From assembly GCA_002371235.1 (NCBI GenBank), contig DFGN01000002.1, positions 4,774 to 68,773 on the forward strand: 64,000 bases of DNA. The letters run 5' to 3'. The notes beneath the pieces are model-generated. The model made no database searches and was not told the origin of the DNA. It saw nothing but the letters and a program-made list of their open reading frames with translations. This document shows positions 9,869 to 55,015 of the stretch, in pieces; within the stretch, counting starts at the first letter, position 1; each line of letters begins with the position of its first letter. The stretch is from Candidatus Saccharibacteria bacterium UBA3749 (GTDB lineage: Bacteria; Patescibacteriota; Saccharimonadia; Saccharimonadales; Saccharimonadaceae). The translations under genes were made by a program, and so were the position numbers.

Positions 9869-9985
9869 TTAACCCTGCCTTTGCTTATTCTTAGGTTTTT
9901 TCTTATTGATAACACGAAGCACACCCTTCCGGCGCACTATAATGTCATCAGGGGAGATTTTTTTAACACTTGCACGTACTTTCAT
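9869..9985 (-). CDS. rpmJ: 50S ribosomal protein L36, Zn-free form (absent from the ORF track)
   Basis: manual translation [38 protein letters not shown]; SD GAAAGGA. Confidence 0.95.
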
Positions 9986-10412: not shown

Positions 10413-11108
10413 CTATCTTATTACTGCGCGTACAAACTGACGCGACAAATAGGTACCACGCTGTTGTGACCACTCGCCAGAGCAGGTAATTAGAGTAATA
10501 GATTCTTTACCAGGCACAGGAGACTTAGCTGCAACCGACATATAACGGTCAGCATCGGACAACAGTATCTCGTTATTTTCATAGACATCGTAAGTATACT
10601 TTATTCCGTCACCACGCTCAACAATAATCACATCACCGACACCCAAATCTGGCAAATCCTTAAATACTCCATGCACATGCGGTCCGCCATTGTGTCCATC
10701 AATAATCATCGTACCACCTTGACCAGGTTTTCCAGAGTCTACATACCAGCCAACATCAAATATATTGCGCGGAGTATCGAGCGCTCGTTCTGCCGTCAAC
10801 CCCATCGGCAAAACTCGAGAATTGTAAATACCGAGACTCGCAATCGTTAAATATCTTGGCCTATCCGCAGCAACTGTATATTCATACACCTCTTCCTCAG
10901 TTGGTTCAATTTCAATCAATTCCTCTTCGGGCTGAATTGTGGTTATTTGTTCATCAAGAACCTCCCTCTCACTGCCTTCTTTTTCATTATAATAATAATT
11001 CTCAAAACTTATTACCCTTATCAGAAACACAGCCAGCAAAACTATAGCGATAGCTACTCCAATCCATTTTACAATTCTCTGCCAGCTCACACTAATCTTT
11101 AAGCTCAT
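10413..11108 (-). CDS. class F sortase, N-terminally membrane anchored
   Basis: catalytic His-Cys-Arg pattern GHNG...LITC...RQFV, VGWY motif; start uncertain (11108 or 11120), overlaps the secY end. Confidence 0.85.
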   Translation of the reverse strand: MSLKISVSWQRIVKWIGVAIAIVLLAVFLIRVISFENYYYNEKEGSEREVLDEQITTIQPEEELIEIEPTEEEVYEYTVAADRPRYLTIASLGIYNSRVLPMGLTAERALDTPRNIFDVGWYVDSGKPGQGGTMIIDGHNGGPHVHGVFKDLPDLGVGDVIIVERGDGIKYTYDVYENNEILLSDADRYMSVAAKSPVPGKESITLITCSGEWSQQRGTYLSRQFVRAVIR

Positions 11109-12525
11109 CACCAAAGTCATCGTAAGTTATCATTAGAGCTCTGGAATCCACCGACCTTAGATTCTCTAACGCCACCGTTACTACAATCAAAAGTCCCGTT
11201 CCAGAAATAGATAGACCAATAGGCGCACCTGTAATTACAATAAATATATAATCAGTGATAAATGGCAACATTGCAATAAGCCCTAGAGCTAAAGCACCAA
11301 ACAAATCAAGATGGTTAACAACCCTAGATAAATACTTGGAGGTAGCTAGACCTGGACGAACTCCTTCAATGAAGCCACCTTGTTTTTGTAAGTTATCAGC
11401 AATTTCTTTGGTATTGAAAATAATAGATGTATAAAAATACGTAAACATAAAAACCAATAAGAAGTAGATCGTTGGATAAATAAACCATTTACCAGTAATA
11501 CCATCGGGATACATGGTGGCAAAATTATTAGCAGAAGGCGCCGAAAAAATCGAAACCAATCCTGAGCCAAACTCATTTCCAGGATCAAAAGTCATAATCA
11601 CTTGACCAACTAAGGCCGGCAAAGACAGGAAAGCCGTCGCAAAAATCACAGGTATCACACCGGCAGCGATTAGTTTAATCGGCAATATAGATTTAATACC
11701 GCCATATGATGAATTACCATGTACGCGTTTGGCATAATTGACAGTGATAATTCTCTGAGCTTCATTTAGTTTAACCAAGAAATAAATTACAACTAACATT
11801 GCAATACCAAATCCAAGAATAATCCAAAATACTGTCGGATTGACCGGTAATTCAAGCCATCCAAACAAGCTCAAGCTACCCTGACTCGTATCGAAAAGCG
11901 CTGCTCCTAGTGAAGCCATCGTAGAAGGTAGTTGTGAAATAATCGAAGCAAAAATCAGAGTCGAAATACCATTGCCTACACCCTGCTCCGTAATTAGCTC
12001 ACCCATCCACATTAGAATAACAGAACCGGCCGTCATAGCGGTTACAGACAAAGCCCAATCACCTAAAGTTGGCGTGAAGTCATTAGCAATATTAGCTGAC
12101 AAAGTAGATTGATACAATATAAATATATATGCAATAGACTGTACAATAGCTAGTGGCACCGTTAGCATCCTAGTCCATTGATTAATCTTACGACGCCCAA
12201 CCTCGCCATCGTTCGACAATTCTTCAAGAGAAGGAATTGCCTTAGTTAAGAGCTGAATTACAATCGAACCAGTAATATACGGTGATAAACCGACTAATAT
12301 AATACTAAAAGACGCCAGGCCACCACCAGAAATAAGATTAAGAAAACTCGAAAAATCAGATTTTTCCATCAGATTAGATACTGCTTCTTTAAAAGTAGAA
12401 GCATCACCCATTGGTACTGGAATCTGAGCAAGCAAACGATAGGCAACAATAATTCCGAGTATAATCATTACTCGCTTCAGCATGTCTTTGTTTTTTAGGG
12501 ATTTAAAAATTGTCTTGAAATGCAT
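11092..12525 (-). CDS. secY: preprotein translocase subunit SecY
   Basis: GLSPYITGSIVIQLL, WMGELITEQGVGNGIS, GGFIEGVRPG, GTGLLIVV; start moved to 12525 (SD GAGG). Confidence 0.97.
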   Translation of the reverse strand: MHFKTIFKSLKNKDMLKRVMIILGIIVAYRLLAQIPVPMGDASTFKEAVSNLMEKSDFSSFLNLISGGGLASFSIILVGLSPYITGSIVIQLLTKAIPSLEELSNDGEVGRRKINQWTRMLTVPLAIVQSIAYIFILYQSTLSANIANDFTPTLGDWALSVTAMTAGSVILMWMGELITEQGVGNGISTLIFASIISQLPSTMASLGAALFDTSQGSLSLFGWLELPVNPTVFWIILGFGIAMLVVIYFLVKLNEAQRIITVNYAKRVHGNSSYGGIKSILPIKLIAAGVIPVIFATAFLSLPALVGQVIMTFDPGNEFGSGLVSIFSAPSANNFATMYPDGITGKWFIYPTIYFLLVFMFTYFYTSIIFNTKEIADNLQKQGGFIEGVRPGLATSKYLSRVVNHLDLFGALALGLIAMLPFITDYIFIVITGAPIGLSISGTGLLIVVTVALENLRSVDSRALMITYDDFGDELKD

Positions 12526-12597
12526 AATAACCTCTGATTTTCTACTATATATTATAATAGCATACTTTAAAGAAATTTGAAACACAAAAACACAAAA

Positions 12598-12723: not shown

Positions 12724-15700
12724 CTAAAGATTTTCCAAATCTTCTTCAGTTGGTATCTTTGAATCAGGTGTTTCAAAATCAGACAAAGGTGCTACACCAG
12801 TTCCTACCGGAATCTTACGACCGATAATCACATTTTCCTTAAGACCGCGTAGATGATCAACTCTACCATTGATAGCAGCGTTTATTAATACTCTAGTGGT
12901 ATCCTGGAATGATGCAGCCGACAAGAATGAATCTGAGAAAATTGAAACCTTAGTAATACCGAGTAGCAAATTAGTATAAGTTAGTGGTGCCTTACCGGCA
13001 GCCTCCAACTCTTTGTTGGCAATGCTTGCAGCAGTCTTTGAAATAATATCACCAGAGACAAACTCAGAGTCGCCTGGATCAATTACCTGCACTCTCGAGA
13101 ACATTTGACGAACCAATATCTCCAAATGTTTAGGCGAAATTTCATGGCCTTGCGCAGCATAGACATTTAGAACATCGTTCATAATGTAACGCTCAGTAGC
13201 TTCAATCCCCTTATATTTCAACAGATCTTGCAAGTTCAAAGAACCAGCAGTGAGCCTATCACCAGCCTTCACTAAATCGTTAGATTTAACAACCAGCTCA
13301 GCATCACCAGGTATTTCAATCTTAATTGGAGCACCGGCAGCCGACACAAGTATAATGGCATCTTTTACTAATTCTACTACGCCATCATTTGGAGCTTTAA
13401 TAGCAGCGAATGATCCGCTTTTCTTAGCAAGAATAGTACCAGACTTAACGCTCTCACCATCCTTTACGGCCGGCTTTCTGCCCTCGAGTTCCATGCGAGC
13501 GATAGAACCAGATTGAGGCGAAATCTGTACAACATAATGATTATTATCTTCATAAACCTCGATTACACCATCAATTGGAGAAACATAAGCTTGACCTTTA
13601 GGAGTACGAGCTTCAAGAAGCTCCTCTACGCGCGGAAGACCTCGTGCAATTGCACCAGAACCTGCCACACCAGAACCATGCTTAGTATCAAGCGTTAGCT
13701 GAGTACCTGGCTCACCAAGTGATTGAGCTGCGATTACACCGACTGGTTCATTGGCCGCAACTAATTCCCTTGTGGCCATGTCTACACCATAAGCCTTACG
13801 CGGAATACCATTCACGGCAGTGGTAGATAGTACAGATTGAATCTTCACTCCCTCAATTTTATCATCAGCTTCGATTTGCTCAGCCATCTCTTTCGTAATT
13901 AGTTCATCTGCTTCGAGATAACCAGGCACTGGTTCTGCTGTGTAGCGACCAGCGATTCTAGCATGGAATTCAATCCCAGATGATTCTGTCTCATTTCGAT
14001 ATACCATAAAGCCTGGATCCTCGGCCTCTTCATCTGTTGTGAAAACATCTTGCGAAACATCTACTAAACGACGTGTCAGATACCCAGAATCTGCGGTACG
14101 AAGAGCTGTAGACACCTGACCCTGACGTGCACCTCGAGTTGCAATAAAGGATTCAAGCGTATTCAAACCCTTCTTGTACGACGATTTTACTGGCAACTCA
14201 ATTTCATTGTTGTTAATATCCACCATAATACCAATCTCTGCCGAAGCAAGCTTGATGTTCGAGATATTACCACGAGCACCAGAGTTCACCATTACCGCAA
14301 TGTCGGTATCCATTTCATTTAACTTACTTGACAAGAAATCAGAAATTTTCTTATCAATATCTCGCCAGTTTGCAATTGTTAACTTATAGCGTTCCTCATC
14401 AGTAGTAAGGCCGTCATTATAGTCTTGCTGAATCAAAGCCGTCTTAGCATCACCCTCCGCGATAAAGTCATCAATCTCGCTATATGTAGGATAATCATCC
14501 TTAGCGGTCGAAATCGATGCAATTGTTTCATATTCAAACGCCAAGTCTTTCAAATCATCTGCTGTTTTTACCATCGTGTCAGCACCATACAGGTCGAAAA
14601 TGTCAGCCATCACTTTAGACAAATGCTTCTTGTTTTGTACTGAGTTATCATATGGATAATCAGCCGGCAAAATTTCGTTGAAAATTACTCTACCGAGGGT
14701 AGTATTTCGAATCTGTTTCTTTGCAAATACACGAATCGGAGTCTGTAGATTAATTACGCCCTGATCGTATGCCATCTCTGCTTCATAAACAGACGAGAAT
14801 GCCTTTGGTTTATCGGTATCAGTACCTGGTTTATCATAAGTAAGGTAATATGCACCAAGCACAACATCCTGATAAATAGCTAGCACTGGAGAACCGTCAG
14901 CGGGTTTCAATAAATTCTTTGAAGCCGACATTAATTCTCTAGCCTCATCCTGAGCGGCGTCAGAAAGTGGCAGATGAACGGCCATCTGATCACCATCATA
15001 ATCTGCGTTAAAGCCAGACGCTACTAGTGGATGCAATTTAATTGCTTTACCATCGATAAGCCTTGGCTGGAAAGCCTGTACAGATAAACGATGGAGCGAC
15101 GGAGCACGATTTAGAAGTACATATTTGCCCTTAATTACTTCATCAAGAGCATCCCAAACAATAGACTCCCTTGCCTCAAGCAATCTTGAAGCAGCACGAA
15201 TATTGTTAGCGTGCTCATTACTGATTAGCCAAGAGATCACAAATGGCTTAAACAGTTCAAGTGCCATCTGTTTCGGCAAACCGCATTCATTGAGTTTTAG
15301 TTCAGGACCCACCACAATCACAGAACGTCCAGAATAATCCACACGCTTACCAAGTAGATTCTGACGGAATCGTCCTTGCTTACCCTTAAGAAGATCAGAC
15401 AATGATTTCAGTTTACGACGACCATTTGTTGAATTAGCGCCTCTTGAACCATGTGACGCAGAGTTATCAATTAGAGAATCAACGGCTTCCTGAAGCATTC
15501 TCATCTCGTTACGACAAATTACTTCAGGTGCATGTAGATCAAGAAGCTTCTTTAAACGATTGTTACGATTTATTACTCTACGGTATAAATCATTCAAATC
15601 TGAAGTAGCAAATCTACCACCAGGCAGTGCAATCATTGGACGAAGATCAGGAGGAATTACTGGAATCACGGTCAAAATTAAGTCTTCCGGTTTGATACCA

Positions 15701-16557
15701 GCAGATTGCATCCCTTCTAGCGTCTTTAGACGCTTTTGGATTTTCTTTTCCTTCTGACCACGCGCTTCTTCCTCTTCCTTATGCAAATCTTCAATTAGTT
15801 TATCAAGATCAATTTCATCCAACAACCGCTTAATTGCCGTAGCGCCCATTTCCACAGTAATCAAGTCCTCATACTCTTCTGGCAAATTACGGTATTGCAC
15901 TTCCGTAATTACTCCACCCTTCTTAAATGACTCTAATGTAGACTTGCGATAAACGTAATCAGCCTGCAATTCTTCAAGCTCTTTTGTCTGCTCTTCTGCT
16001 AATGCTTTCACGTCTGCACCATTCTCTTTGGCAGCTTTTTCGTAACGAATCTTGATTGCATCCCTTGCTGTATTCGTTTGTTCGTCAAGTTTTTCTAGCA
16101 TCTTTTCAACTTTCTCGGTGTCTGCATCAACAATGAGATAAGTAGCAAAGTAAACAACTTTTTCAATATTCTTTACCGTAATATCAAGTAAAAGTGACAA
16201 CGCAGAAGGGATACCTCGCATAAACCAAATATGCGCAACTGGAGCCGCAAGTGCAATATGCCCCATACGTTCACGCCTAGTAATTGACTTAGTGACTAAG
16301 TTACCCTCTTTGTCAACTGCCGCCTCACGCGATCTTACACCTTTTAGCTTTGCATCGTGTGGGTTGATGTCCTTAGTTGGACCGAAAATCCTTTCGCAGA
16401 ACAAACCATCCCTTTCAGGTTTCTGGGTCCTATAATTGATTGTTTCTGGCTTGGTTACTTCACCATAACTCCAATTCAGTATGTCATCGCGACTTGCTAC
16501 CGACAAACGAATCGAGTCAAAATCTGAAGCGCTGATAAAATTATCCATCCACGCCAT
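12724..16557 (-). CDS. rpoC: RNA polymerase beta' subunit
   Basis: KPETINYRT, RFRQNLLGKRVDYSGR, LNRAPSLH, NADYDGDQMAVH; start moved to 16557. Confidence 0.98.
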   Translation of the reverse strand: MAWMDNFISASDFDSIRLSVASRDDILNWSYGEVTKPETINYRTQKPERDGLFCERIFGPTKDINPHDAKLKGVRSREAAVDKEGNLVTKSITRRERMGHIALAAPVAHIWFMRGIPSALSLLLDITVKNIEKVVYFATYLIVDADTEKVEKMLEKLDEQTNTARDAIKIRYEKAAKENGADVKALAEEQTKELEELQADYVYRKSTLESFKKGGVITEVQYRNLPEEYEDLITVEMGATAIKRLLDEIDLDKLIEDLHKEEEEARGQKEKKIQKRLKTLEGMQSAGIKPEDLILTVIPVIPPDLRPMIALPGGRFATSDLNDLYRRVINRNNRLKKLLDLHAPEVICRNEMRMLQEAVDSLIDNSASHGSRGANSTNGRRKLKSLSDLLKGKQGRFRQNLLGKRVDYSGRSVIVVGPELKLNECGLPKQMALELFKPFVISWLISNEHANNIRAASRLLEARESIVWDALDEVIKGKYVLLNRAPSLHRLSVQAFQPRLIDGKAIKLHPLVASGFNADYDGDQMAVHLPLSDAAQDEARELMSASKNLLKPADGSPVLAIYQDVVLGAYYLTYDKPGTDTDKPKAFSSVYEAEMAYDQGVINLQTPIRVFAKKQIRNTTLGRVIFNEILPADYPYDNSVQNKKHLSKVMADIFDLYGADTMVKTADDLKDLAFEYETIASISTAKDDYPTYSEIDDFIAEGDAKTALIQQDYNDGLTTDEERYKLTIANWRDIDKKISDFLSSKLNEMDTDIAVMVNSGARGNISNIKLASAEIGIMVDINNNEIELPVKSSYKKGLNTLESFIATRGARQGQVSTALRTADSGYLTRRLVDVSQDVFTTDEEAEDPGFMVYRNETESSGIEFHARIAGRYTAEPVPGYLEADELITKEMAEQIEADDKIEGVKIQSVLSTTAVNGIPRKAYGVDMATRELVAANEPVGVIAAQSLGEPGTQLTLDTKHGSGVAGSGAIARGLPRVEELLEARTPKGQAYVSPIDGVIEVYEDNNHYVVQISPQSGSIARMELEGRKPAVKDGESVKSGTILAKKSGSFAAIKAPNDGVVELVKDAIILVSAAGAPIKIEIPGDAELVVKSNDLVKAGDRLTAGSLNLQDLLKYKGIEATERYIMNDVLNVYAAQGHEISPKHLEILVRQMFSRVQVIDPGDSEFVSGDIISKTAASIANKELEAAGKAPLTYTNLLLGITKVSIFSDSFLSAASFQDTTRVLINAAINGRVDHLRGLKENVIIGRKIPVGTGVAPLSDFETPDSKIPTEEDLENL

Positions 16558-16558
16558 A

Positions 16559-19500
16559 TTAGAACTCCTCTCCGAGGTCAACTGTACCATCACTTTCATC
16601 GACCTCTTTTATTTCGATACCTTCATCTGCCATCATGGCTTCAGCTTCTGCATCATCAAGATCCAGAATCTGAGGTTCAGTATCTTTCTTATGTTGATCA
16701 TATATAGATTCATCATCTTTAGATTTTTCAATTTCTTTTGAAGTTTTCTCGATTACGTCACCAGCATCGGAAGCCTCACCATGGTCTAGTAGGTCAACCT
16801 TTAAGCCAAGACCTTGTAGCTCTTTTACAAGAACGTTAAAGCCTTCAGGTAACTTCGGTCCTTCGATTGGTTCATGTTTGATAATCGCTTCATAGGCCTT
16901 CGCGCGACCATAAACGTCATCAGACTTAATTGTTAGCATCTCCTGTAAAGTTGTAGCTGCGCCATAAGCCTCAAGCGCCCAAACCTCCATTTCCCCGAAG
17001 CGCTGACCACCATTTTGTGCCTTACCACCAAGTGGCTGTTGTGTCACCATTGTGTAAGGACCAGTCGAACGAGCATGGATTTTATCTTCTACCATGTGAT
17101 GAAGCTTCAACATATGCATCACGCCGACCGAAGTACGTTCATTAAATGGTTCACCAGTAAGACCATCATAAAGCTGCACTCTACCATCACGGGCAAAACC
17201 AGCCTTTTCAAGTTCATCCGATATTATTTCGTCTGGTACCCCATTAAAGGAAGGGGTAGCAACCTTATAGCCAAGCGCTCGCGCTGCCATACCCAGATGC
17301 GTTTCAAATAATTGTCCAAGGTTCATACGTGAAGGCACGCCCATTGGAGACAAAATGACATCAATCGGTGTGCCGTCAGCCATGAATGGCATGTCTTCAA
17401 CCGGAAGTACTCGCGACACCACACCTTTGTTGCCGTGACGTCCTGCAAGCTTATCACCTACACCAATTTTTCGCATTTCAGCTACGAAGATTTTAATCTG
17501 CATAATCACACCAGCTTTGAGATCGTGGCCTTGTTCCCTGGTATAAACACGGACATCGACTACTTTACCAGTAGATGAACCATTCATCCTGACTGATGTA
17601 TCGCGTACGTCTTTAGCCTTCTCACCGAAGATAGCACGGAGCAATCGTTCTTCTGAGCTAAGCTCTTGTTCGCCCTTCGGAGTAATCTTACCAACTAGGA
17701 TATCACCATTCTTTACCTCGGAACCAATCGTTACAATACCATCTTCACCTAAGTGTCTCAATGAGTGTTCAGAAACATTTGGAATATCACGCGTCACCTG
17801 CTCTGGACCAAGCTTGGTTTCACGCACCTCGACATCGAAATCCTTAATATTAATTGAAGTCAAAGTATCATCCTCTACTAGACGATTCGAGATTACAATC
17901 GCATCATCCATGTTATAACCACGCCATGGCATAAATGCTACTAATAAGTCTCGTCCTAGAGCTAGCTCACCATCATTAATAGAAGCACCCTCAATTAGAG
18001 AGTCATCTTTCTTTACTTTCTGTCCACGAGCCACTACGCAACGTTGATTGTAACAGCGGTCATCATTAGTTTTCTCAAAATGTTGTAACTTATATTCAAC
18101 ATCACCACCCTTGTCATAAGTCACAATCACGCTCTCACTGTCCGCTTTCTTTACTACACCATTACCGGTCGCCATGATTAGCTGTGAAGTATTTTTAGCG
18201 ACTTCACGTTCAATACCAGTACCCACAATTGGATTGTCTTGGCGAAGTAGAGGTACGGCCTGCTTCTGCATTGCGCATGCCATTAACGAGCGGTCAACAC
18301 GGTTCTTCTCAACAAATGGAATCAAACTTGCAGAAGTACCAAGAATCTCCTTGTGCGCTGCATCAATGTGAGTTACTCTCTTCGCCTCAACCTGGGCCGG
18401 AGTACCATGCACTCTCGCTGACACCCAATCCTCAACAAATCTTCCATCTTTGTCCAACTTAACCGAAGCATCCGCAATAATCTTATCATTCTCAGTATCA
18501 GCATCCATGTAAACAATTTCGTCAGTCGCTTTTCCATCTTTCACCACACGATACGGTGCCTCGATAAAACCGTATTTGTTTATTCTGGCATAAGTTGCAA
18601 AGTTAAGTACAAGACCCACGTTGCCACCTTCTGGGGTTTCTACCGTACAAATGCGTCCGTAATGAGTCGGATGCGCATCGCGCACGTCAAATCCGGCACG
18701 CTCCCTCGTAAGACCACCAGGACCCATCGAGCTTAAACGGCGCTTGTGTGCAAGCTCTGAAAATGGGTTTACTTCATCCATTAACTGTGACAACTGTGAA
18801 GTCGCAAAGAATTCCTTTACCGCCGCCACCACAGGTCTCGAATTGAGCAACTGTGACGGAGTTACATCATCAGGATTAGCCATGGACATGCGGTCAAAAA
18901 TATTACGCTGCAAACGAAGCATGCCTAACCTAAATTGCCTCTGCACCAGTTCTCCCACCAACTTAACGCGACGATTCGATAGCGAGTCGATATCATCAGG
19001 TGCTTCCTGGGTGTTATTCAGACGAATAATCTCGGCAATAATTGCCTTAACATCATTCATTTGTAGTGTCCTGAATTCTGGCTCGTCTGGTGTATCAAAA
19101 TGCAATCTTCGATTAATTTTAAATCTACCAACGCTCGAATAATCATAGCGTTTCCTATCAAAGAAAGTCCTCTCAATCATCGATCTTGCATTCTCTACCG
19201 TGGCGAGATCGCCAGGACGCAACTTACGATAGACCTCAAGCAAAGCCTCTCCTTGATTCGAAGTCGTATCCTTCTCAAATGTCGCTTCAATATACTTAAC
19301 TTCGCCATTATCGATATCCTTAAAAGTATCAATAATTTGCGACTTCGTCATACCAAGCGCTCTTAAGAAAGTTGTCACAGGAATTTTACGACGACGGTCG
19401 ATTTTAACAAAAATCGCACCATTTACCGCAGTCTCAAACTCCAGCCACGCACCACGACCAGGTATCACCTTAGCGCCATAATAACGCTTTAAACCAACAG

Positions 19501-19939
19501 TTTCAGCATTAAAGAAAACACCAGCTGAACGAATTAGTTGAGAAACAATTACACGTTCAGTTCCGTTGATAATAAATGTAGCCCTATCAGTCATCCAAGG
19601 GTAATCACCAAAATAAATATCCTGTTCCTTCTTTTGTCCAGTAATCTTGTTCTCAAGCTCAACTAAGACATGAAGCGGCGCTTCATAAGTAGCGAGATTA
19701 TATTTTGCCTCTCGTTCAGATTCCTTCGGATCTTTAAAATAATAATCTTTAAAACGGAGTGATAGCTTTTGCCCGGTATAATCATCTATTGGATTTAACT
19801 CCTCAAAGACTTCCCTAAGTCCGTTCTTGACAAAGTCTGCCCACGATTCCTTTTGGTGTGCAGTCAAATCTGGGATTGGCAACGCCTGATCCCCGCCAGT
19901 GAAGAATACTCTCTCACCTGACTTTGGTTTTTTCGCCAT
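16559..19939 (-). CDS. rpoB: RNA polymerase beta subunit
   Basis: HKRRLSSMGPGGL, GDKLAGRHGNKGVV, GGQRFGEMEVWAL. Confidence 0.99.
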   Translation of the reverse strand: MAKKPKSGERVFFTGGDQALPIPDLTAHQKESWADFVKNGLREVFEELNPIDDYTGQKLSLRFKDYYFKDPKESEREAKYNLATYEAPLHVLVELENKITGQKKEQDIYFGDYPWMTDRATFIINGTERVIVSQLIRSAGVFFNAETVGLKRYYGAKVIPGRGAWLEFETAVNGAIFVKIDRRRKIPVTTFLRALGMTKSQIIDTFKDIDNGEVKYIEATFEKDTTSNQGEALLEVYRKLRPGDLATVENARSMIERTFFDRKRYDYSSVGRFKINRRLHFDTPDEPEFRTLQMNDVKAIIAEIIRLNNTQEAPDDIDSLSNRRVKLVGELVQRQFRLGMLRLQRNIFDRMSMANPDDVTPSQLLNSRPVVAAVKEFFATSQLSQLMDEVNPFSELAHKRRLSSMGPGGLTRERAGFDVRDAHPTHYGRICTVETPEGGNVGLVLNFATYARINKYGFIEAPYRVVKDGKATDEIVYMDADTENDKIIADASVKLDKDGRFVEDWVSARVHGTPAQVEAKRVTHIDAAHKEILGTSASLIPFVEKNRVDRSLMACAMQKQAVPLLRQDNPIVGTGIEREVAKNTSQLIMATGNGVVKKADSESVIVTYDKGGDVEYKLQHFEKTNDDRCYNQRCVVARGQKVKKDDSLIEGASINDGELALGRDLLVAFMPWRGYNMDDAIVISNRLVEDDTLTSINIKDFDVEVRETKLGPEQVTRDIPNVSEHSLRHLGEDGIVTIGSEVKNGDILVGKITPKGEQELSSEERLLRAIFGEKAKDVRDTSVRMNGSSTGKVVDVRVYTREQGHDLKAGVIMQIKIFVAEMRKIGVGDKLAGRHGNKGVVSRVLPVEDMPFMADGTPIDVILSPMGVPSRMNLGQLFETHLGMAARALGYKVATPSFNGVPDEIISDELEKAGFARDGRVQLYDGLTGEPFNERTSVGVMHMLKLHHMVEDKIHARSTGPYTMVTQQPLGGKAQNGGQRFGEMEVWALEAYGAATTLQEMLTIKSDDVYGRAKAYEAIIKHEPIEGPKLPEGFNVLVKELQGLGLKVDLLDHGEASDAGDVIEKTSKEIEKSKDDESIYDQHKKDTEPQILDLDDAEAEAMMADEGIEIKEVDESDGTVDLGEEF

Positions 19940-23654: not shown

Positions 23655-24157
23655 GCTTCCATTATAGCATAAACCGCAATACCGGCAGCAACCGAAACAT
23701 TAAACGATTCCTTTTTCCCCTTCATTGGTATTTCAAGGAATATGTCAATTAAATCATATAGTGATTTATCTATGCCGTTCACTTCTTCACCAAGGATTAA
23801 AACCACATTGTTAGATAATCTATTTCTATAGTTAGATGTACCTAAATAAACCAGTTTATTTGAATTGATATTGTTTTCAAGTCCGACTACCTGCCAACCA
23901 TGCTTTTTGTAGTTTTTTAAATCTGTTTTTAAGTCAGTGGAAGAAATTATTTTTAGCATGTCCTCTGCACCAAGCGCTGTTTTATGTATTTCACGGTCGA
24001 GCTTATTCCTAAGATGTGGCAATAACGTAATGTCATGCACTCTTGGTGTATACCCAGACAAAACTACTTCATTCACGCCAAAACCCTCCGCAGTTCTTAA
24101 AATTGCACCTACGTTATAGCAAGACCTAATGTTATCAAGTACCAAAACCAATTTCAT
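23651..24157 (-). CDS. SpoU/TrmH-family RNA methyltransferase
   Basis: LDNIRSCYNVGAILRTA, GEEVNGI, EIPMKGKKESFNVSVA. Confidence 0.9.
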   Translation of the reverse strand: MKLVLVLDNIRSCYNVGAILRTAEGFGVNEVVLSGYTPRVHDITLLPHLRNKLDREIHKTALGAEDMLKIISSTDLKTDLKNYKKHGWQVVGLENNINSNKLVYLGTSNYRNRLSNNVVLILGEEVNGIDKSLYDLIDIFLEIPMKGKKESFNVSVAAGIAVYAIMEA

Positions 24158-26463
24158 TAAACTACTATATTAACCAAGTTTGCCTTTTTTACAAAGATAG
24201 TTTTCTTAATGCCGTCTTTTATATATTCGGCAACCTTATCATTCGTTTTCACAATCTCAATTACAGTCGCTTCATCATTAAGCTTTTGCTTATCTATAGT
24301 AATTCTCGCTCGAAGCTTTCCATTCACCTGCACGACCAATTCAACCGTATCTGTCGCTAAATACTTATCGTCCCATTTCGGCCACTCATCGTCAGAATCA
24401 AGTTTCTCCAACATTTCTGAAGCAAGATGTGGAGCAAATGGCTTTAGCAGCTTAGCTAACGCAGTCAAATCGTCAGATGTTACACCTTCTTTATATAGCT
24501 CATTTACATATTCCATCAAAGCTGCAACCGCAGTATTAAAATTGCATTTATGAATATCTTCCGTAACCTTCTTTATGGTTTTGTTTCGCACGATAGCATT
24601 TTTATCGGAATCACCATCATTCAGCACAAACATATCATCATCAAAACATAGATTATAACAACGATTCAAGAATCGATAAACACCACCCACCGAACGAGTA
24701 TCCCAAGCTGCATCCATATCGTATGGTCCAATAAACATTTCGTAAACGCGCAAAGTATCAGCACCGTACCCATCATTAATTACATCTAGCGGATCAATCA
24801 CGTTGCCTTTAGACTTAGACATTTTTTTGCCATCAGGAGCATTAATGTAACCATTGTATAATAGCTTTTTGATTGGTTCTCGAAAAGGCAAATACCCCTC
24901 ATCCGCAAAGAACTTACACCAGAACCTCACATAGAGTAAATGTGCCACTGCATGATCTCCACCACAATAATAATCAACAGGTTCCCAATAACTAATTGCC
25001 TCAGGGTTCCAAGCATGTTCTGTGTCATGCGGCGAAGCATAACGCCATAAATACCAAGAAGAACAAGCATAACCATCAAGTGTATCAGTTTCCCTTGTCA
25101 TTTCTTCCATATGTATCTCACCCGTCTTTGAGTCTTTCACCGGAATCGACACCTTTAACCAATCCTTAGCCTTCGCGAGTGCCGAACGTCCAGTTTTATC
25201 AGGCTTATAATCTTCAATTTCCGGCAACATAACTGGAAGTTGTTCCTCCGGAATAGCATGTGGATTACCATCCTTATCATAAGCAATCGGAATCGGACAA
25301 CCCCAGTATCTCTGACGGCTAATCAACCAATCTCGCATTCGATAGGTCGTCTTCGGTGTACCATATAAATCACGGTCCACTATTTCCGTTTCTACAATCG
25401 GCAAATTAAACTTCTCTGCAAACTCACGATCCCGCTCATCATTATACGGTACGGCCATGATAGCGCCAGTTCCATAACCAGCTAGCACATAATCCGCAAC
25501 CCAAATCGGTATTTCCTCTTTAGTAGCCGGGTTGATTGCATACGCACCAGTAAATACGCCAGTCTTTTCCTTATTCTCCTGTCGCTCTATTTCAGATTTC
25601 TTCAAAGCATCAGCACGATACTTCATTACGGCTTCTTTTGCATTATCCGAAACAATGTAGTCTAGTTTTGAATATTCCGGTGCAACCACTAAAAACGTCG
25701 CACCTTTAATTGTATCTGGCCGAGTGGTAAATACCGTAATACTGTGCGCACTATCTTTCACCTTAAAATCAATCTCTGCCCCCACACTTCGTCCAATCCA
25801 GTTCCTTTGCATTGTTTTAATCTTTTCTGGCCAATCTAATGCATCAATATCCTCAAGTAGTTCATCCGCATATTCTGTAATCTTGAAGAACCATTGTTTC
25901 ATTTTCTTCTTCTCAACTTCATGTCCGCATCGCCAACAATGGCCATTTTCAACCTGTTCGTTTGCAAGCACCGTCTGATCAACCGGACACCACCATTGAT
26001 ACGACTCCTTCTGATAAGCCAGACCCTTTCTAAATAGCTGCAAGAAGCACCACTGTGTCCACTTATAGTATTCAGGGTCCGAGGTATTGATCTCACGATC
26101 CCAGTCTATAGCGTAACCAAGTCGTTTTGCTTGTTTTCTGAAATTAGCAATATTAATCTTTGTCACTTCTTGTGGGGCAGTACCGGTCTTTATAGCGTAA
26201 TTCTCCGCCGGTAAACCAAACGTATCGTAACCGAACGGTCGCATAACATTAAGCCTTTGTTGCTCATAGAATCTCGTTAATACGTCAACAATTGTAAAAT
26301 TCCTTACATGCCCGACATGAAGTCCAGCTCCAGACGGATACGGGAACATCTCAGCTAAAAACATCTTTGGAACACTAGGCCGTATTTCAACTTTGTACGG
26401 CTTATTCTTTTCCCACTTTTGTTGCCATTTTTCTTCTATCTCTAAAGGATTATATCTTTTCAT
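24157..26463 (-). CDS. leuS: leucine--tRNA ligase
   Basis: FPYPSG..LHVGH, KMSKS, WLISRQRYWG; start moved to 26463. Confidence 0.97.
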   Translation of the reverse strand: MKRYNPLEIEEKWQQKWEKNKPYKVEIRPSVPKMFLAEMFPYPSGAGLHVGHVRNFTIVDVLTRFYEQQRLNVMRPFGYDTFGLPAENYAIKTGTAPQEVTKINIANFRKQAKRLGYAIDWDREINTSDPEYYKWTQWCFLQLFRKGLAYQKESYQWWCPVDQTVLANEQVENGHCWRCGHEVEKKKMKQWFFKITEYADELLEDIDALDWPEKIKTMQRNWIGRSVGAEIDFKVKDSAHSITVFTTRPDTIKGATFLVVAPEYSKLDYIVSDNAKEAVMKYRADALKKSEIERQENKEKTGVFTGAYAINPATKEEIPIWVADYVLAGYGTGAIMAVPYNDERDREFAEKFNLPIVETEIVDRDLYGTPKTTYRMRDWLISRQRYWGCPIPIAYDKDGNPHAIPEEQLPVMLPEIEDYKPDKTGRSALAKAKDWLKVSIPVKDSKTGEIHMEEMTRETDTLDGYACSSWYLWRYASPHDTEHAWNPEAISYWEPVDYYCGGDHAVAHLLYVRFWCKFFADEGYLPFREPIKKLLYNGYINAPDGKKMSKSKGNVIDPLDVINDGYGADTLRVYEMFIGPYDMDAAWDTRSVGGVYRFLNRCYNLCFDDDMFVLNDGDSDKNAIVRNKTIKKVTEDIHKCNFNTAVAALMEYVNELYKEGVTSDDLTALAKLLKPFAPHLASEMLEKLDSDDEWPKWDDKYLATDTVELVVQVNGKLRARITIDKQKLNDEATVIEIVKTNDKVAEYIKDGIKKTIFVKKANLVNIVV

Positions 26464-26517
26464 GCAAAAATTATACCATAAAACCAAAATAAATTAAAAC
26501 AACAGTTTCCGTAAAAG

Positions 26518-34483: not shown

Positions 34484-35440
34484 TTAAAACTCCCTCAAAA
34501 ATTTAAGATTACCACTCTCAAAATGCCTGACATCATCTAGACCATATCTTAGCATTACGAGCCTGTCGATTCCACCACCCCAGGCGAAACCGTGATACTT
34601 CTCTGGATTGATTCCAGCCATCTTTAAGACATTAGGATGAATCATTCCGCAACCAAGCATTTCGAGATAATCACCTTTCTTGCCACCAAGCGACTTGGGT
34701 TTCTCAATCAAAAATTCAAGGGATGGCTCTGTGAATGGAAAATAGCCTGGTTGAGTTCTAATCTCTAGCTTTTGTTCATAATATTTTTCAAAAAACTCAC
34801 GCAAAATGCCTAGCATATTGCCAAGCGAACAAGTCTCTGACACATATACACCCTCACATTGATAGAAAGTGTGCTCGTGTGTTGCATCCACATCTTCATT
34901 CCGAAAGACTCGCCCAGGCACAACTACAGCAATCGCCTTACCATCTTCTAGTTTCTTTCGATATGCTTTTAATACTCTATGTTGCATCGTAGATGTATGA
35001 GCTGGCGGGATAAAGCCTTCTTCAGTCCGAAACGTATCATAGCCATCACGAGCTGGATGCTCTTTCACGAAATTAAGAGAATCAAACATATGAAATTCAT
35101 CATCTAATTGTCTTGCTTCCACCACATCAAAGCCCATCATTTGATAGATATCGACAACGCGGTCCAACTCCGACATCAAAGGATGCAGTGAACCCATATC
35201 GGTTGGATAAAAATCCGGGAGCGCCTCATTTACCCCAGACCATGCCGTTATATCAAGCGGCTCCACAGCAGCATCAAGCAAAGCCTTCTCGGCCTCAGAA
35301 ATCTTAGCTAAGATTTCCTGTCTCTTTGCATTAATCTTCTTACCAAAATCAGCCCTCTCCTCTACCGGTAAGTCACGAATCTTGGCCGCTTCACTATTTA
35401 TCTTTTTTAGCTCTAGTTTTAGACTCTCAATATTCTGCAT
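34484..35440 (-). CDS. pheS: phenylalanine--tRNA ligase alpha subunit
   Basis: HPARD, HTSTMQHR, YFPFTEPS, GCGMIHP, GFAWGGG. Confidence 0.97.
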   Translation of the reverse strand: MQNIESLKLELKKINSEAAKIRDLPVEERADFGKKINAKRQEILAKISEAEKALLDAAVEPLDITAWSGVNEALPDFYPTDMGSLHPLMSELDRVVDIYQMMGFDVVEARQLDDEFHMFDSLNFVKEHPARDGYDTFRTEEGFIPPAHTSTMQHRVLKAYRKKLEDGKAIAVVVPGRVFRNEDVDATHEHTFYQCEGVYVSETCSLGNMLGILREFFEKYYEQKLEIRTQPGYFPFTEPSLEFLIEKPKSLGGKKGDYLEMLGCGMIHPNVLKMAGINPEKYHGFAWGGGIDRLVMLRYGLDDVRHFESGNLKFLREF

Positions 35441-36784: not shown

Positions 36785-38209
36785 TTAATTATGGTTCTTA
36801 GGAAACAGTGGAACTTTCGGTGTAGTGATTTTTCCACTAAAAATATCGATAATCTTTGCAGCAGCATCAGGAATAAAGGGCGACAATTCATAAACTGCTG
36901 TTAACAAACCGTCTATTAAGTTATGCAGGCATGTTTTCAACTTCTCAATCTCACCATTCTTAGCCAAGCTCCACGGTTTCTCTTCATCAATCCTCTTGTT
37001 TAGTTCCTGTATCTTATTCCACACTAAATCGAAGGCTTTTGAAAACTCAAAACCATCCATCAAAGCAATATACTCATCCGACAATCTGCTATTATTATCT
37101 CTACTAATCACTATCTGATTTTTATCGGCGAGTGTCGCCAATCTTTGTACAAGGTTACCAAGATCATTGGCTAACTCATTATTATAAGCCTCTTCATATT
37201 TATCCCAAGTAAAATCCGAATCCGCAAAGGTATCAATATGTCTTAGGAAATAATACCTAAAAGCATCCAAGCCATGGCTCTCGAGCACCTCAATTGGGTC
37301 TACAACATTGCCAATCGATTTTGACATCTTTTGTCCATCACAAAGTACCATACCGTGTGAAACTAGATTTTGCGGCAATGGCAAACCAAGACCAATTAAC
37401 ATCGCAGGCCAAATAATCGCATGAAATCTAAGAATATCCTTACCAACAAATTGAGCATTAGCTGGCCACCATTCACCAAAATCTTTCGCATCGGGAAAAC
37501 CGATAACAGTAATATAATTCGATAAAGCATCCAGCCACACATACATCACCTGTGAAGGGTCGTCTGGTACTGGCACGCCCCAGCTTAATTGAGAAACTGG
37601 TCTGGATATCGAAACATCAGGTGATTCCTCCAAAAGGCACAATATTTCCTTCTTTCTAAATTCAGGCAAAATCCTCATCTCGTTGGACACAATCGCCTCA
37701 CGAATTCTATCTTTAAAATCACTTACTCTAAAATAGTAATTCTCTTCTTGTAATTCTTCGTATGGTTTTTGATGATCGGGACAAACACCCCCAGTTTCAT
37801 CAAATTCTTTTTTTGTAACATACCTCTCGCAACCGGTGCAATACCAACCTTCGTATTTTGCTTTATAGATATGATCACTAAGACGACGCCAGATTTCCTG
37901 TACTCGCTTTTCATGGCTTTCATCTGTCGTGCGCACGAAATCAGTATAAGAAACATTGAGCTTTTTAATAAAATCCCTGAACTTATTCGCGTTCTCATTA
38001 ACATAATCTTGTACTGGCAAATCTAATTCTTTAGCCTTCTGGGCTATCTTGTTTCCATGTTCATCCGTACCAGCTTGAAATCTTACCTCGTCCCCCTTCA
38101 GTCTATGATATCTGGCATAGCAATCTGCCAAACAATAATCCACCGCATGTCCAATATGTGGTTTACCGTTAACATAGGGTATAGCCGTCGTTATATATAT
38201 CTTTTCCAT
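36785..38209 (-). CDS. metG: methionine--tRNA ligase (short form)
   Basis: YVNGKPHIGH, GTDEHG, GKDILRFH, KMSKS; start moved to 38209. Confidence 0.97.
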   Translation of the reverse strand: MEKIYITTAIPYVNGKPHIGHAVDYCLADCYARYHRLKGDEVRFQAGTDEHGNKIAQKAKELDLPVQDYVNENANKFRDFIKKLNVSYTDFVRTTDESHEKRVQEIWRRLSDHIYKAKYEGWYCTGCERYVTKKEFDETGGVCPDHQKPYEELQEENYYFRVSDFKDRIREAIVSNEMRILPEFRKKEILCLLEESPDVSISRPVSQLSWGVPVPDDPSQVMYVWLDALSNYITVIGFPDAKDFGEWWPANAQFVGKDILRFHAIIWPAMLIGLGLPLPQNLVSHGMVLCDGQKMSKSIGNVVDPIEVLESHGLDAFRYYFLRHIDTFADSDFTWDKYEEAYNNELANDLGNLVQRLATLADKNQIVISRDNNSRLSDEYIALMDGFEFSKAFDLVWNKIQELNKRIDEEKPWSLAKNGEIEKLKTCLHNLIDGLLTAVYELSPFIPDAAAKIIDIFSGKITTPKVPLFPKNHN

Positions 38210-38285
38210 ACAATATATATTACAATATTTTGCCCATAAAGACAAGCAACATAGATTAAAATCGCAATTCGAACTAAGGACTCAA

Positions 38286-48753: not shown

Positions 48754-51700
48754 TTATTTTCTACGCGATGATACTGCCTTTGGCATTTTGAAGAATGCAA
48801 GCAATAGACAACCAAATATAATACTTCCACTAAGTCCACCCGAAATCGCATTGTCAATTTGTGCCATCACAGTTCCAGTATCCGGCGCTTCAGGTGATTC
48901 AGGAATCTCCGGCTCAATGTCACTACCACAACCCCCATCTTCCAAACATGGATCAATAGGCTCAGGCTCTGGTTCCGGCTCAGGCTCTGGTTCATGATTG
49001 TTTACTACTGTCAAGACAAGACCGCCATCATCGTTCCACTCATAGCCACCTTCGCCTTCCGTACTATACGTACAAGTCTTAGTATAAACATTCTTCAATC
49101 CATCCACATCTACACCGGTAAATTCAACCTTACATTCTATCACCACGTCTACTTCATCTTCTACCATCTCATAACCTTCAAGAGCCTCAACTTCTTTTAC
49201 TACAAACACCAGATTGTCCTCCGTCTCGTTTGCTTCCACCGGAATCGTAATGCTAATCTCGCCATTATTGTCGGTTACGTATTCTGTCCCATTAACCTCA
49301 AATTTCACACCCGCAAGCGTCTCACCTTCTTCATTCACTTTTCGGATAGCAAACTCTGATTCGCCATCATATACGTATTCATTAGTCGCCGAAGTCCAAG
49401 TGTTGGTTATTTCAAAACCGTTCACACTCTGCTCCCACACACCATCAAGCGTATCGTCGTTTTCATTGTAAATAAACATTGCTTTTTCATTCTCGCCGAA
49501 TTGACTCTCACCCAACATCGATTCTCTCACAGAATACGTAATCGCTAAACCATTCTCATACTTATGCAAGTTCTTGAATATCCATTCCCATTCATTAGCC
49601 GCGGAAATCGTTACCGGTTCCCCCACCACCCAAGTTTTCTGATTACCATCTGTATCAGTCGTTTCGGCCATCAACTCAATTTGAATCGTACTCGGTCTCC
49701 TCAGTTCGTTGTCATCACCCGACCAGATCTTCTTCACTATAATATCTTCGTGTGGCACTGGCACATGTCTATTAGTAATCACGCCATCAGTAATAATTGC
49801 AACATAATCATTGTCACCATCGAATTCAGTACAAGAAATTGAATCGCCTTCTCCTTCACAAACTGAAGCTTCAACTATAGTATAAGTGAGTTTTTCATTA
49901 CTTGCTCCAGTAGCTGGCAAATCATTAAATTCGTAATCAGCATCCTCCAACAATAAGTCACTATATGCTACATATTTACCGTTATTGTCCTTAACTGCAA
50001 TATAATAGTTGGCATAATTCTTTCTTAAATCATCGCGGTTTTCATCATCTTCCCATACCTTAGATACACTTACGTCTACGCTGTTGTATATATTATATAT
50101 AGCGCGTGATTCCTTCGAATATGTTTTTGATACCAAACGCAAAGTTCCGTCACCATTATCTTCAGTTACAATTGTTACTGTAATGTCTTCATCTTGATCA
50201 AAACGAGTAATACCAGGACGAAATGCACTCGTTCCATCCTCGTTCTTTGTTTTTTCAGTAATAGTATAAATATATGTTCCTTCATCCTCAATCGTTACGA
50301 CAAATTCTGCAGTATTATTGGCAAAAGTTAGCGAATCACTTTCAATCGTCTCTCCACCGTCACTCCTATTTAACACAAACACAAATGAGTCACCAGGCTG
50401 CCAGAATTGCTCATATCCACTCACGAAATTCTTGAATACTGTAATTTTAGCATCTTCATCCTTTAGCTTAGAAACTTGATAGTCATTCTTGAATTCTACT
50501 TTATTATCTTTCTTCTCAATTTTACCAGTTTTAGTAGTGGCTACACCACCGTTAAATCCAGGTTTAGCCTCCTCGATTACTTCATAATACCAGTCTGTCG
50601 GAATATTCTCGAACGTCTTCGATTCACCATGCATTAAAGTAATACCATCAATCGTACGTACTGGTTTCGTATCGCCCTGTTTTTCGTAAAAGTTCACCGT
50701 AAAATTAAAGGATTTCTCTCGCGCTAAATCCAGATCACCACTCGTCGCCGTTACTTCCTTTGTAATCGTCAGGCTTCCTGATTCTAGGTAGTTCGTTACA
50801 GTTACTTGCGAGCTAGCATTCCCAAATACTTCATTCACATCCGGCAAAACAGTTGTACCATCTGCTCCGTATTGTACCACTTGATAATCAATCGCGTTGC
50901 GCTTATATCCACTTGGTAAATCCTCCGAAACCTCAAAAGTTGTACCAGTTGCCACATCTAGGACCATAATCTTTTGATTAACACCGATTTGCTCAGTAAT
51001 TTTACCGCCAGTACAGCTTTGCTTATCTCCGGATGTTACGTTCTGGGTTAAACCACCCTCACCATCATCAACATATTCATAAGTCTGGATACGATAACAA
51101 TTTTCCTTTTCAAGAAGTGCGCCATTTTTGTCCTTAATATTTTTGATCGTAATAGTATATTTATCGTCGATACTATTGTCAAGACTACCATTATTCATCA
51201 CAACTTTCGATACCAGTATGCCACCATTTAATGTGTTTTCAACTGAAAGTTTTGTTAATATATTGTTGTCAATTATCGCAGTTCCATCGTCGTTAAAAAT
51301 TACATCGTGAATCTTGCCATCATCAACAATCATTGGATGATATTTACGCTTAGTTATATGATAATGATTTGTACTACCAGTAAAATCATAGTTTTCATTA
51401 TCAAATTCATAATCATGTCCCTCTTCAAGTACAACGTATCTTTCGCCATCAACCGTCACGATTCTACCAAACGATTCCAAACCATCCGTATCAGGACTCA
51501 CTAATTTCTTCATTACACCCGGTGCTACCGTATAATTACTTTTACCATTTTGGTCTACGCCAATCCATTCCGCTCCACTTTGAGCCGTGAATGTGTAGTG
51601 CCTCACCGCTTCTGGATTCGTTTTTCGATCAACAAAGAGATCCAATGAAACACGATCAATATCTTTACGCTGTTTCGGGTCCATCTGGTCAGCCCATAGC

Positions 51701-54111: not shown

Positions 54112-54381
54112 TTACCAGCTACTCTTAGTTACACCAGGAATCTCACCGTTCGATGCTTTTTCCCGGAAGTTAATACGTGAAAGACCAAATCGACGCATGT
54201 AACCACGTGGACGACCGTCCAACATGTCACGATTCTTTAACCTTGTTGGTGAAGAATTGCGCGGTAACTTTTGTAAACCTTCTAGGTCACCCGCCATCTT
54301 CAACGCTGCACGCTTTTCTTTATATTTGTTATACATCTTTTGTCGTTTTTCATCGCGAAGCACTGCAGATTTCTTTGCCAT
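54112..54381 (-). CDS. rpsN: 30S ribosomal protein S14, Zn-free form
   Basis: [32 protein letters not shown]; start moved to 54381. Confidence 0.96.
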
Positions 54382-54382
54382 A

Positions 54383-55015
54383 CTACTTTGCCTCCTTTTC
54401 AAACGGCATTCCGAATAATTCTAACAATTTAAGACTTCCTTCCTTTGAGCCATTTTTAATTATAAACGTAACTTCAAGACCGTGGAGTACAGATGCATCC
54501 TCGAAAGTGATTTCTGGGAATACAGTCTGCTCTTTTAGTCCTAAGTTATAGTTACCTTGCACATCAAAAGCCTTCCTCGAAACGCCGTGAAAATCACGCA
54601 CGTGTGGTAAAGCAATATTGATTAAGCGATCGACAAATTCATACATTTTGTCATTACGCAAAGTTGTGAGGTACCCAACCGGTGCACCCATTCCCTTACG
54701 AATTTTAAACGTCGCAATTGATTTTTTCGCGAGACGAGAAGTTGCAGCCTGACCTGTAATTTTAGCCAGCGTCAATGCTACGGTTTCAGTAAAACGCTTA
54801 TCTTCACGCTTCTTACCAACACCGCAAGAGACTACAACTTTTTCTAGTTTAGGAACTTGGTTAATATTTTTGAGACCAAGCTCTTTTTGTAGTTTCACCT
54901 TTAGCTCATTATTATAGAGAGCCTTCAGGCGTGGTTGTGCTTTGGCCTCGGACTTGACTGCTTTTTTCACAGTCTTAGTGGTCTTAGCCTCGGCAGCCGT
55001 TTTCTTTTCCGCCAT
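54383..55015 (-). CDS. rplE: 50S ribosomal protein L5
   Basis: [32 protein letters not shown]. Confidence 0.97.

Follow-up and report, generated by a model that had tools for sequence, protein, structure and literature searches.

Introduction

In Escherichia coli, the beta' subunit of RNA polymerase (RpoC) holds zinc at two Zn(Cys)4 sites, a first one (Zn1) made of C70/C72/C85/C88 in the arrangement CxC-x12-CxxC and a second one (Zn2) made of C814/C888/C895/C898. Both are regarded as constant in the bacterial enzyme, and the second has been reported to be needed for assembly of the E. coli enzyme. In this work we analysed the rpoC gene on a 64,000-nucleotide stretch of contig C11 (positions 4774-68773), the whole of which is referred to as the window, from a genome of the order Saccharimonadales. 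The ligand replacements seen in this protein most likely mean that its beta' subunit has neither of the canonical zinc sites. The genome (719 kilobases in 31 contigs, 97% complete) has as its closest public records entries titled Candidatus Nanosyncoccus or Saccharibacteria, and the samples behind them are mostly from animal (mainly ruminant) gut.

In model bacteria, cysteine-lacking (C-minus) ribosomal proteins occur as extra paralogs that are Zur-induced under zinc shortage. Many Gram-positive adenylate kinases have a Zn(Cys)4 site in the LID domain, and the E. coli enzyme has a hydrogen-bond network of His, Ser, Asp and Thr residues there instead. The first zinc site of beta' lies at a meeting place of the enzyme with nascent RNA and upstream DNA and, in E. 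coli and Thermus, with regulators such as Rho and putRNA. Two lysines of E. coli beta', K74 and K87, contact promoter spacer DNA and matter at promoters with a weak -35 element (bioRxiv 10.1101/2020.01.02.893370). Among the regulators of RNA polymerase, DksA2-type paralogs of DksA are described as zinc-independent and without the Cys4 finger (PMC4850274).

Zinc ligand columns of the beta' subunit

The gene and the segments corresponding to the two zinc sites are located as follows.

12724..16599, minus strand: rpoC, RNA polymerase beta'; 1291 amino acids as the longest open reading frame (ORF); Pfam Rpb1 domains 1-5, E=0 against solved beta' chains
16303..16374, minus strand: core of the former Zn1 domain; residues 76-99; no indel relative to canonical beta'
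16360-16362 (P80), 16354-16356 (D82), 16315-16317 (V95) and 16306-16308 (E98), minus strand: Zn1 ligand codons
14008..14046, minus strand: loop equivalent to that of C814; residues 852-864, with A858 at the ligand column; no Cys or His
13786..13836, minus strand: second half of the former Zn2; residues 922-938; T926, P933 and A936 replace C888, C895 and C898

Five Pfam domains (PF04997, PF00623, PF04983, PF05000 and PF04998) were all matched, in order and over the full length of the ORF, and the catalytic aspartate triad is present in an NADYDGD motif (NADYDGDQMAVH) that aligns with NADFDGDQMA of the solved chains. The ORF is an intact, full-length and ordinary essential beta' of a Saccharimonadales bacterium. 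When it is set beside the canonical beta' with two Zn(Cys)4 sites, the gene, the order of the domains and the length through the zinc-binding domain are the same, and the flanking segments GLFCERIFGP and RRERMGHI are kept together with K74 and K87. What differs is that the eight ligands are replaced, as are W68, Y71 and Y80, the aromatic residues in the core of the domain.

Ligand columns were read from an alignment to E. coli K-12 RpoC, and HMMER alignments to Clostridium-type beta' chains agree on them. C70/C72/C85/C88 of Zn1 correspond to P80/D82/V95/E98, which lie within the peptide KDINPHDAKLKGVRSREAAVDKEG (residues 76-99, nucleotides 16303-16374), and the length of the Zn1 domain is unchanged. 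C814/C888/C895/C898 of Zn2 correspond to A858/T926/P933/A936, the A858 column being uncertain by about one residue due to indels in the C814 loop; the last three of these residues lie within the peptide SVLSTTAVNGIPRKAYG (residues 922-938, nucleotides 13786-13836). The C814-equivalent loop (TTDEEAEDPGF) contains neither Cys nor His, and it is variable and indel-rich within the order, although a few other families still have C814. Cysteine occurs just three times in the entire protein (C68, C362 and C439), whereas the median in other Patescibacteria is 13. These alignments bear out the original prediction of a beta' subunit without either canonical zinc site: the two peptides that it quoted are present and devoid of Cys ligands, all eight ligand columns are replaced in this protein, and the Zn1 cysteines are missing from all 94 in-order sequences.

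Distribution within and outside the order

Membership of the order Saccharimonadales was taken from record titles, the sampled records including ones titled Nanosynbacter, Saccharimonas, Saccharimonadaceae and Saccharimonadales. No Zn1 cysteine was found in any of 30 in-order loci, in any of 76 full-length in-order loci (Nanosynbacter- and Saccharimonas-titled records included) or in any of 20 further in-order loci from additional families. All 94 full-length in-order sequences are without Zn1 cysteines, and any one of them has two Zn2 cysteines at most. At the DNA level, a pattern for the cysteine-free motif KDINxxDxK matched 311 of 401 genomes of the order; this tally takes in the unpublished genomes G362, G645, G654, G572, G643, G613 and G589, and no claim depends on those alone. 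The pattern-negative families were considered as possible holdouts of the zinc site, and this was rejected, as cysteine-free variants (including KDISPHD, KDLNPHD, KDVNIHD and KNISQHD) are carried by 22 of the 22 pattern-negative genomes that have an assembled N-terminus.

Beyond the order, the full set of eight cysteines is found in 20/20 genomes of other Saccharimonadia orders and in 60/60 genomes from other Patescibacteria families. The loss is an order-wide trait, present in every sampled genome of the order and in none sampled outside it. The proposal that it might be a trait of the whole class, or of the Candidate Phyla Radiation (CPR) as a whole, was rejected by the RpoC alignment across CPR, in which 80/80 out-of-order Patescibacteria retain the eight cysteines. 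Judged by its ligand columns, the beta' in the window has lost both Zn(Cys)4 sites, and chance or an assembly error is excluded because the 94 in-order sequences are uniformly without Zn1 cysteines and the 80 out-of-order genomes keep the full set.

A maximum-likelihood tree was built from 108 beta' sequences from which the three zinc segments had been removed beforehand. In this tree the 57 zinc-free sequences group together as a single clade (support 1.0), the stem of which is about three times the median internal branch, and the sister of this clade consists of four cysteine-bearing Saccharimonadia sequences. The loss of the zinc sites maps to this one stem branch and had a single origin.

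Remodelling of Zn1 and decay of Zn2

Within the order, the 40-residue Zn1 region has a mean column entropy of 0.30, the value for beta' as a whole being 0.87, and it ranks among the most conserved 10% of 40-residue segments. The codons of KDINxxDxK vary at synonymous sites between genomes under a constant peptide, and this is direct evidence of purifying selection. Using criteria of 75%/5%, 14 clade-signature positions were obtained between in-order and out-of-order beta', and eight of them fall at E. coli residues 68-85: W68I, E69N, C70P, Y71H, C72D, Y80S, G82E and C85V (E. coli numbering). C895P, in the former Zn2, is one more of the 14. None of 76 in-order sequences departs from K74 or K87 (E. 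coli numbering), and acidic and His residues have become newly conserved in the Zn1 domain, namely H81 (89%), D82, E92 and D96 (numbering of the protein in the window). The Zn1 domain has been neither deleted nor left to drift, but remodelled with coordinated, fixed replacements.

At the second site there has been plain decay. None of the 94 full-length in-order sequences has C895 or C898; 82 of the 94 have no Zn2 cysteine at all, ten have C888 alone and two have C814 and C888, so that C888 is kept in 12 sequences. The sequences shown with relic cysteines fall in a subclade that does not include the window, and the variability of the Zn2 region (entropy) is at or above the protein average. C895 and C898 were lost at the stem, and C814 and C888 were then lost piecemeal.

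We put at roughly 0.78 the probability that this beta' is a lineage-specific form without either Zn(Cys)4 site, in which the Zn1 domain is retained and works without structural zinc. As to how this could be achieved, the two zinc knuckles might have given way to self-forming turns (N-P-H-D and D-K-N/E-G), with the new acidic residues probably pairing with conserved Lys and Arg residues; zinc would then not be needed for the Zn1 domain to fold, or to act where the RNA exits and at the upstream DNA. At the second site, the role in assembly would now be met by the protein fold alone.

Zinc sites in other core proteins

The proteome of this genome was compared with that of a nearly complete sister-order genome, G041 (747 kilobases), over 403 reciprocal best hits. 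The paired-knuckle motifs of G041 are gone here from RpoC, L36, L31, S14, DnaG, RecR, DnaJ, leucyl-tRNA synthetase (one site) and the alpha subunit of phenylalanyl-tRNA synthetase, and also from two PilB-type ATPases and one unannotated protein of 489 amino acids; L36 and L31 are present as cysteine-free forms and S14 as the long form. Cys motifs are kept in RadA, PriA, Fpg, ComF, ComM, methionyl-tRNA synthetase, a class II aminoacyl-tRNA synthetase and prepilin peptidase. Five of the genes concerned lie in the window.

9869..9985, minus strand: rpmJ (L36), cysteine-free; ligands of CxxC..C..H are S, D, K and N; Cys-free in 4/4 in-order genomes, zinc form in 3/3 out-of-order genomes
54112..54402, minus strand: rpsN (S14), long form without the Cys4 site; also in the out-of-order genome G093, hence not order-specific
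24157..26487, minus strand: leuS (leucyl-tRNA synthetase); one sister-order Cys4 site is DGIK here, the second site has 3/4 cysteines
34484..35440, minus strand: pheS (phenylalanyl-tRNA synthetase alpha); sister-order CxxC-x7-CxxC insert deleted
36785..38245, minus strand: metG (methionyl-tRNA synthetase); CxxC..CxxH kept

The zinc sites of L36, L31 and RecR were lost in 4/4 in-order genomes and kept in 3/3 out-of-order genomes, and that of DnaG was lost in 4/4 in-order genomes and in one of the three out-of-order genomes. There has been a partial purge of Zn(Cys)4 sites from the core machinery of the order, in which the losses in L36, L31 and RecR are confined to the order and that in DnaG is not exclusive to it. 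The purge is not total because metG keeps CxxC..CxxH, and total zinc independence was rejected, given that the motifs listed above as kept (RadA, PriA, Fpg, ComF, ComM, methionyl-tRNA synthetase, the class II synthetase and prepilin peptidase) are intact. A general depletion of cysteine from the proteome was likewise rejected: cysteine makes up 0.93% of the residues in this genome's ORFs of at least 100 amino acids, and over the 403 pairs the cysteines unique to one ortholog partner number 562 in this genome versus 307 in G041.

The DnaJ protein of this genome (contig C31, 11884-12822, outside the window) is without the entire CxxCxGxG zinc-finger domain. DnaJ was rejected as part of the order-wide purge, as its Cys-rich domain is kept in three other in-order genomes. 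The out-of-order genome G093 (loci L265, L255 and L279) is independently without the DnaG zinc-ribbon ligands and the DnaJ Cys domain and has a long S14; its beta' nevertheless has all eight cysteines, and its L36, L31 and RecR are of the zinc form. Zinc-site loss elsewhere in the class is therefore piecemeal.

Gene neighbourhood and promoters

The rpoB-rpoC gene pair is present, with the two genes adjoining on the same strand.

16559..19939, minus strand: rpoB, beta subunit; directly upstream of rpoC; one of the ortholog pairs shared with G041

With its start at 16599, the longest ORF of rpoC shares 41 nucleotides with the end of rpoB (16559), and an alternative in-frame ATG is found at 16557, just past the rpoB stop; the true start of rpoC is uncertain between these two. 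Downstream of rpoC, secY and a sortase gene (10413-12585) are found instead of the usual rpsL-rpsG-fusA. Amid the ribosomal protein genes, positions 48754-53076 encode a surface protein of 1440 amino acids; its domains are VWA, Cna_B, FctA and SpaA, and its type corresponds to a sortase-assembled pilus or adhesin. A lineage insert 3' of the zinc-binding domain (window 15700-16120, beta' residues about 160-300) is predicted to form a long helical hairpin, with a predicted local distance difference test score (pLDDT) of around 90. Actinobacterial chains align unbroken across it, and E. coli and Firmicutes chains split there. This insert is probably not order-specific because beta' lengths are similar in other Patescibacteria.

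The zinc loss had also been proposed to go with a reliance on extended -10 promoters. In this genome, TGn precedes TATAAT-like hexamers upstream of genes in 27.6% of cases (4.75x background), and in the zinc-keeping sister-order genome G041 it does so in 18.8% (3.6x background). Extended -10 elements are therefore common in both the zinc-free and the zinc-keeping genome, and the proposed link is not supported, nothing specific to zinc loss being seen. Counted over the whole genomes, 22.6% of the TATAAT sites here lie within TGnTATAAT, and the figure for G041 is 9.8%.

Discussion

Several points weigh against the view that this beta' works without structural zinc and that it belongs to a wider sparing of the metal. 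The term "zinc-free" is here a reading of ligand loss alone, and the newly conserved His and acidic residues of the Zn1 domain could in principle bind another metal. AlphaFold2 models of residues 20-430 gave a pLDDT below 50 across the Zn1 domain with an in-order-only alignment, and of 54-70 at residues 80-109 (flanks 76-94) with a mixed alignment to which 75 cysteine-bearing relatives had been added. These values give no confident model of the ligand-bearing loops and are too low for judging a metal geometry, and they speak neither for nor against retention of the fold. The proteome-wide comparison covers one genome pair and five further genomes. None of five genomes yielded ZnuA, and transporter content gives zinc sparing no support; ZIP and Fur, each present in one in-order and one out-of-order genome, show no pattern between the two groups, and a link of the loss to zinc importers or regulators was rejected for these five genomes. 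Finally, DnaG and RecR, which are of low abundance, also lost their sites, and zinc economy alone does not predict this.

In the in-order genome G027, a ZIP-family transporter gene adjoins a Fur-family regulator gene (C1:409864-411032), and the two resemble a zinc importer paired with its Zur-type control. At least some of the order's members would therefore still manage zinc uptake.

As the driver of the loss, constitutive zinc sparing in the abundant core machinery has about even odds. The main alternative to it is protection from thiol oxidation, that is, resistance to oxidants and electrophiles in a surface-living epibiont whose Zn(Cys)4 sites would be easily oxidised. This would accommodate both the reach of the purge into low-abundance DnaG and RecR as well as abundant proteins, and the fact that no clear loss of zinc importers is seen relative to zinc-keeping relatives. 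However, the total cysteine content is not below that of the sister-order genome, Cys4 sites are retained in RadA, PriA, Fpg, ComF and ComM, and the closest relatives of the window are mostly from ruminant gut, taken as largely anoxic. We regard an oxidant-driven loss as a tentative explanation, on the unlikely side.

It is improbable, in our judgement, that Zn1 was rebuilt as a metal site without cysteines, using H81, D82, E92 and D96 (E. coli positions 71, 72, 82 and 86). The metal held there would be zinc or a harder one, for instance Mn, Fe, Mg or Ca, and the polymerase would be cysteine-free but not metal-free at this place. The clade-specific changes do surround the old knuckles with three carboxylates and one His, and among 76 sequences D72, E82 and D86 (E. 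coli numbering) are invariant and H71 is found in 68. Yet H71 is N or Y in the other 8, D72 changes to E and E82 to N or D in some deeper families, and N, E, K and S all occur at position 88, the last of the four old ligand positions. Moreover, a conserved Lys or Arg stands beside each new carboxylate, so that salt bridges fit equally well, and Zn2 has no candidate ligands (T, P, S or A). The question, raised in the original prediction, of whether other residues might reconstitute the zinc sites is thus answered in the negative for Zn2, and for Zn1 a possible set of ligands stands.

It is highly implausible that relaxed selection in a reduced, host-dependent genome has turned the Zn1 segment into a decaying vestige whose usual jobs (Rho engagement, antitermination and spacer contacts) are unneeded, since, although Rho was not found in five Saccharimonadia genomes and Zn2 shows above-average entropy with piecemeal loss of relic cysteines, Zn1 stays in the most conserved 10% across an order in which the first 400 ORF residues of beta' drop to about 60% identity with the window, its segment has no indels, K74 and K87 are invariant, synonymous sites vary while the peptide is fixed, and zinc-keeping relatives are without Rho just the same. 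A link between zinc loss and Rho loss was itself rejected, Rho being found in none of the five genomes, in-order or out-of-order.

If a remodelled Zn1 domain does work without structural zinc, as we prefer to read it, both "universal" zinc sites of beta' are replaceable by protein-only solutions, and the remodelled Zn1 might serve as a template for metal-free versions of the domain. Nanosynbacter is a genus with cultivated human oral strains, and an order without both sites, Nanosynbacter-titled records included, would offer a natural test of what zinc is for in this enzyme. The beta' loss would also provide a clean molecular marker for the order. The wider purge would mark the point in the evolution of Saccharibacteria at which core machinery was freed from Zn(Cys)4, and it bears on how epibionts cope with the metal supply or the oxidants of the host.

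Full-text literature searches found no report of a zinc-free bacterial beta'. We consider it somewhat more probable than even that the Saccharimonadales enzyme is the first known natural cellular multisubunit RNA polymerase without a structural metal site outside the active centre, and that it belongs to a single, order-wide overhaul by which the machinery of transcription, translation and replication (RpoC, L36, L31, DnaG and RecR) came to work without Zn(Cys)4. A close likeness is found in the C-minus forms of L31, L36, S14, L33 and other ribosomal proteins, which many bacteria use for zinc sparing: there, too, structural Cys4 or Cys3His sites are lost while the role of the protein is kept. 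Unlike the Zur-controlled C-minus paralogs, the zinc-free copy is the only copy found here, and the change extends to RNA polymerase. In DksA2 (PMC4850274), a zinc finger of the transcription machinery likewise appears in a cysteine-poor version; that protein is an accessory factor with a zinc-bearing paralog, whereas the protein considered here is a subunit of the catalytic core, for which no zinc-bearing copy was found. The LID domain of adenylate kinase belongs to an unrelated protein, but in it a zinc-knuckle module keeps its fold and role with polar residues in place of the metal, and it is the best analogy for what Zn1 has probably become, with a comparable polar network that may have taken over in beta'.

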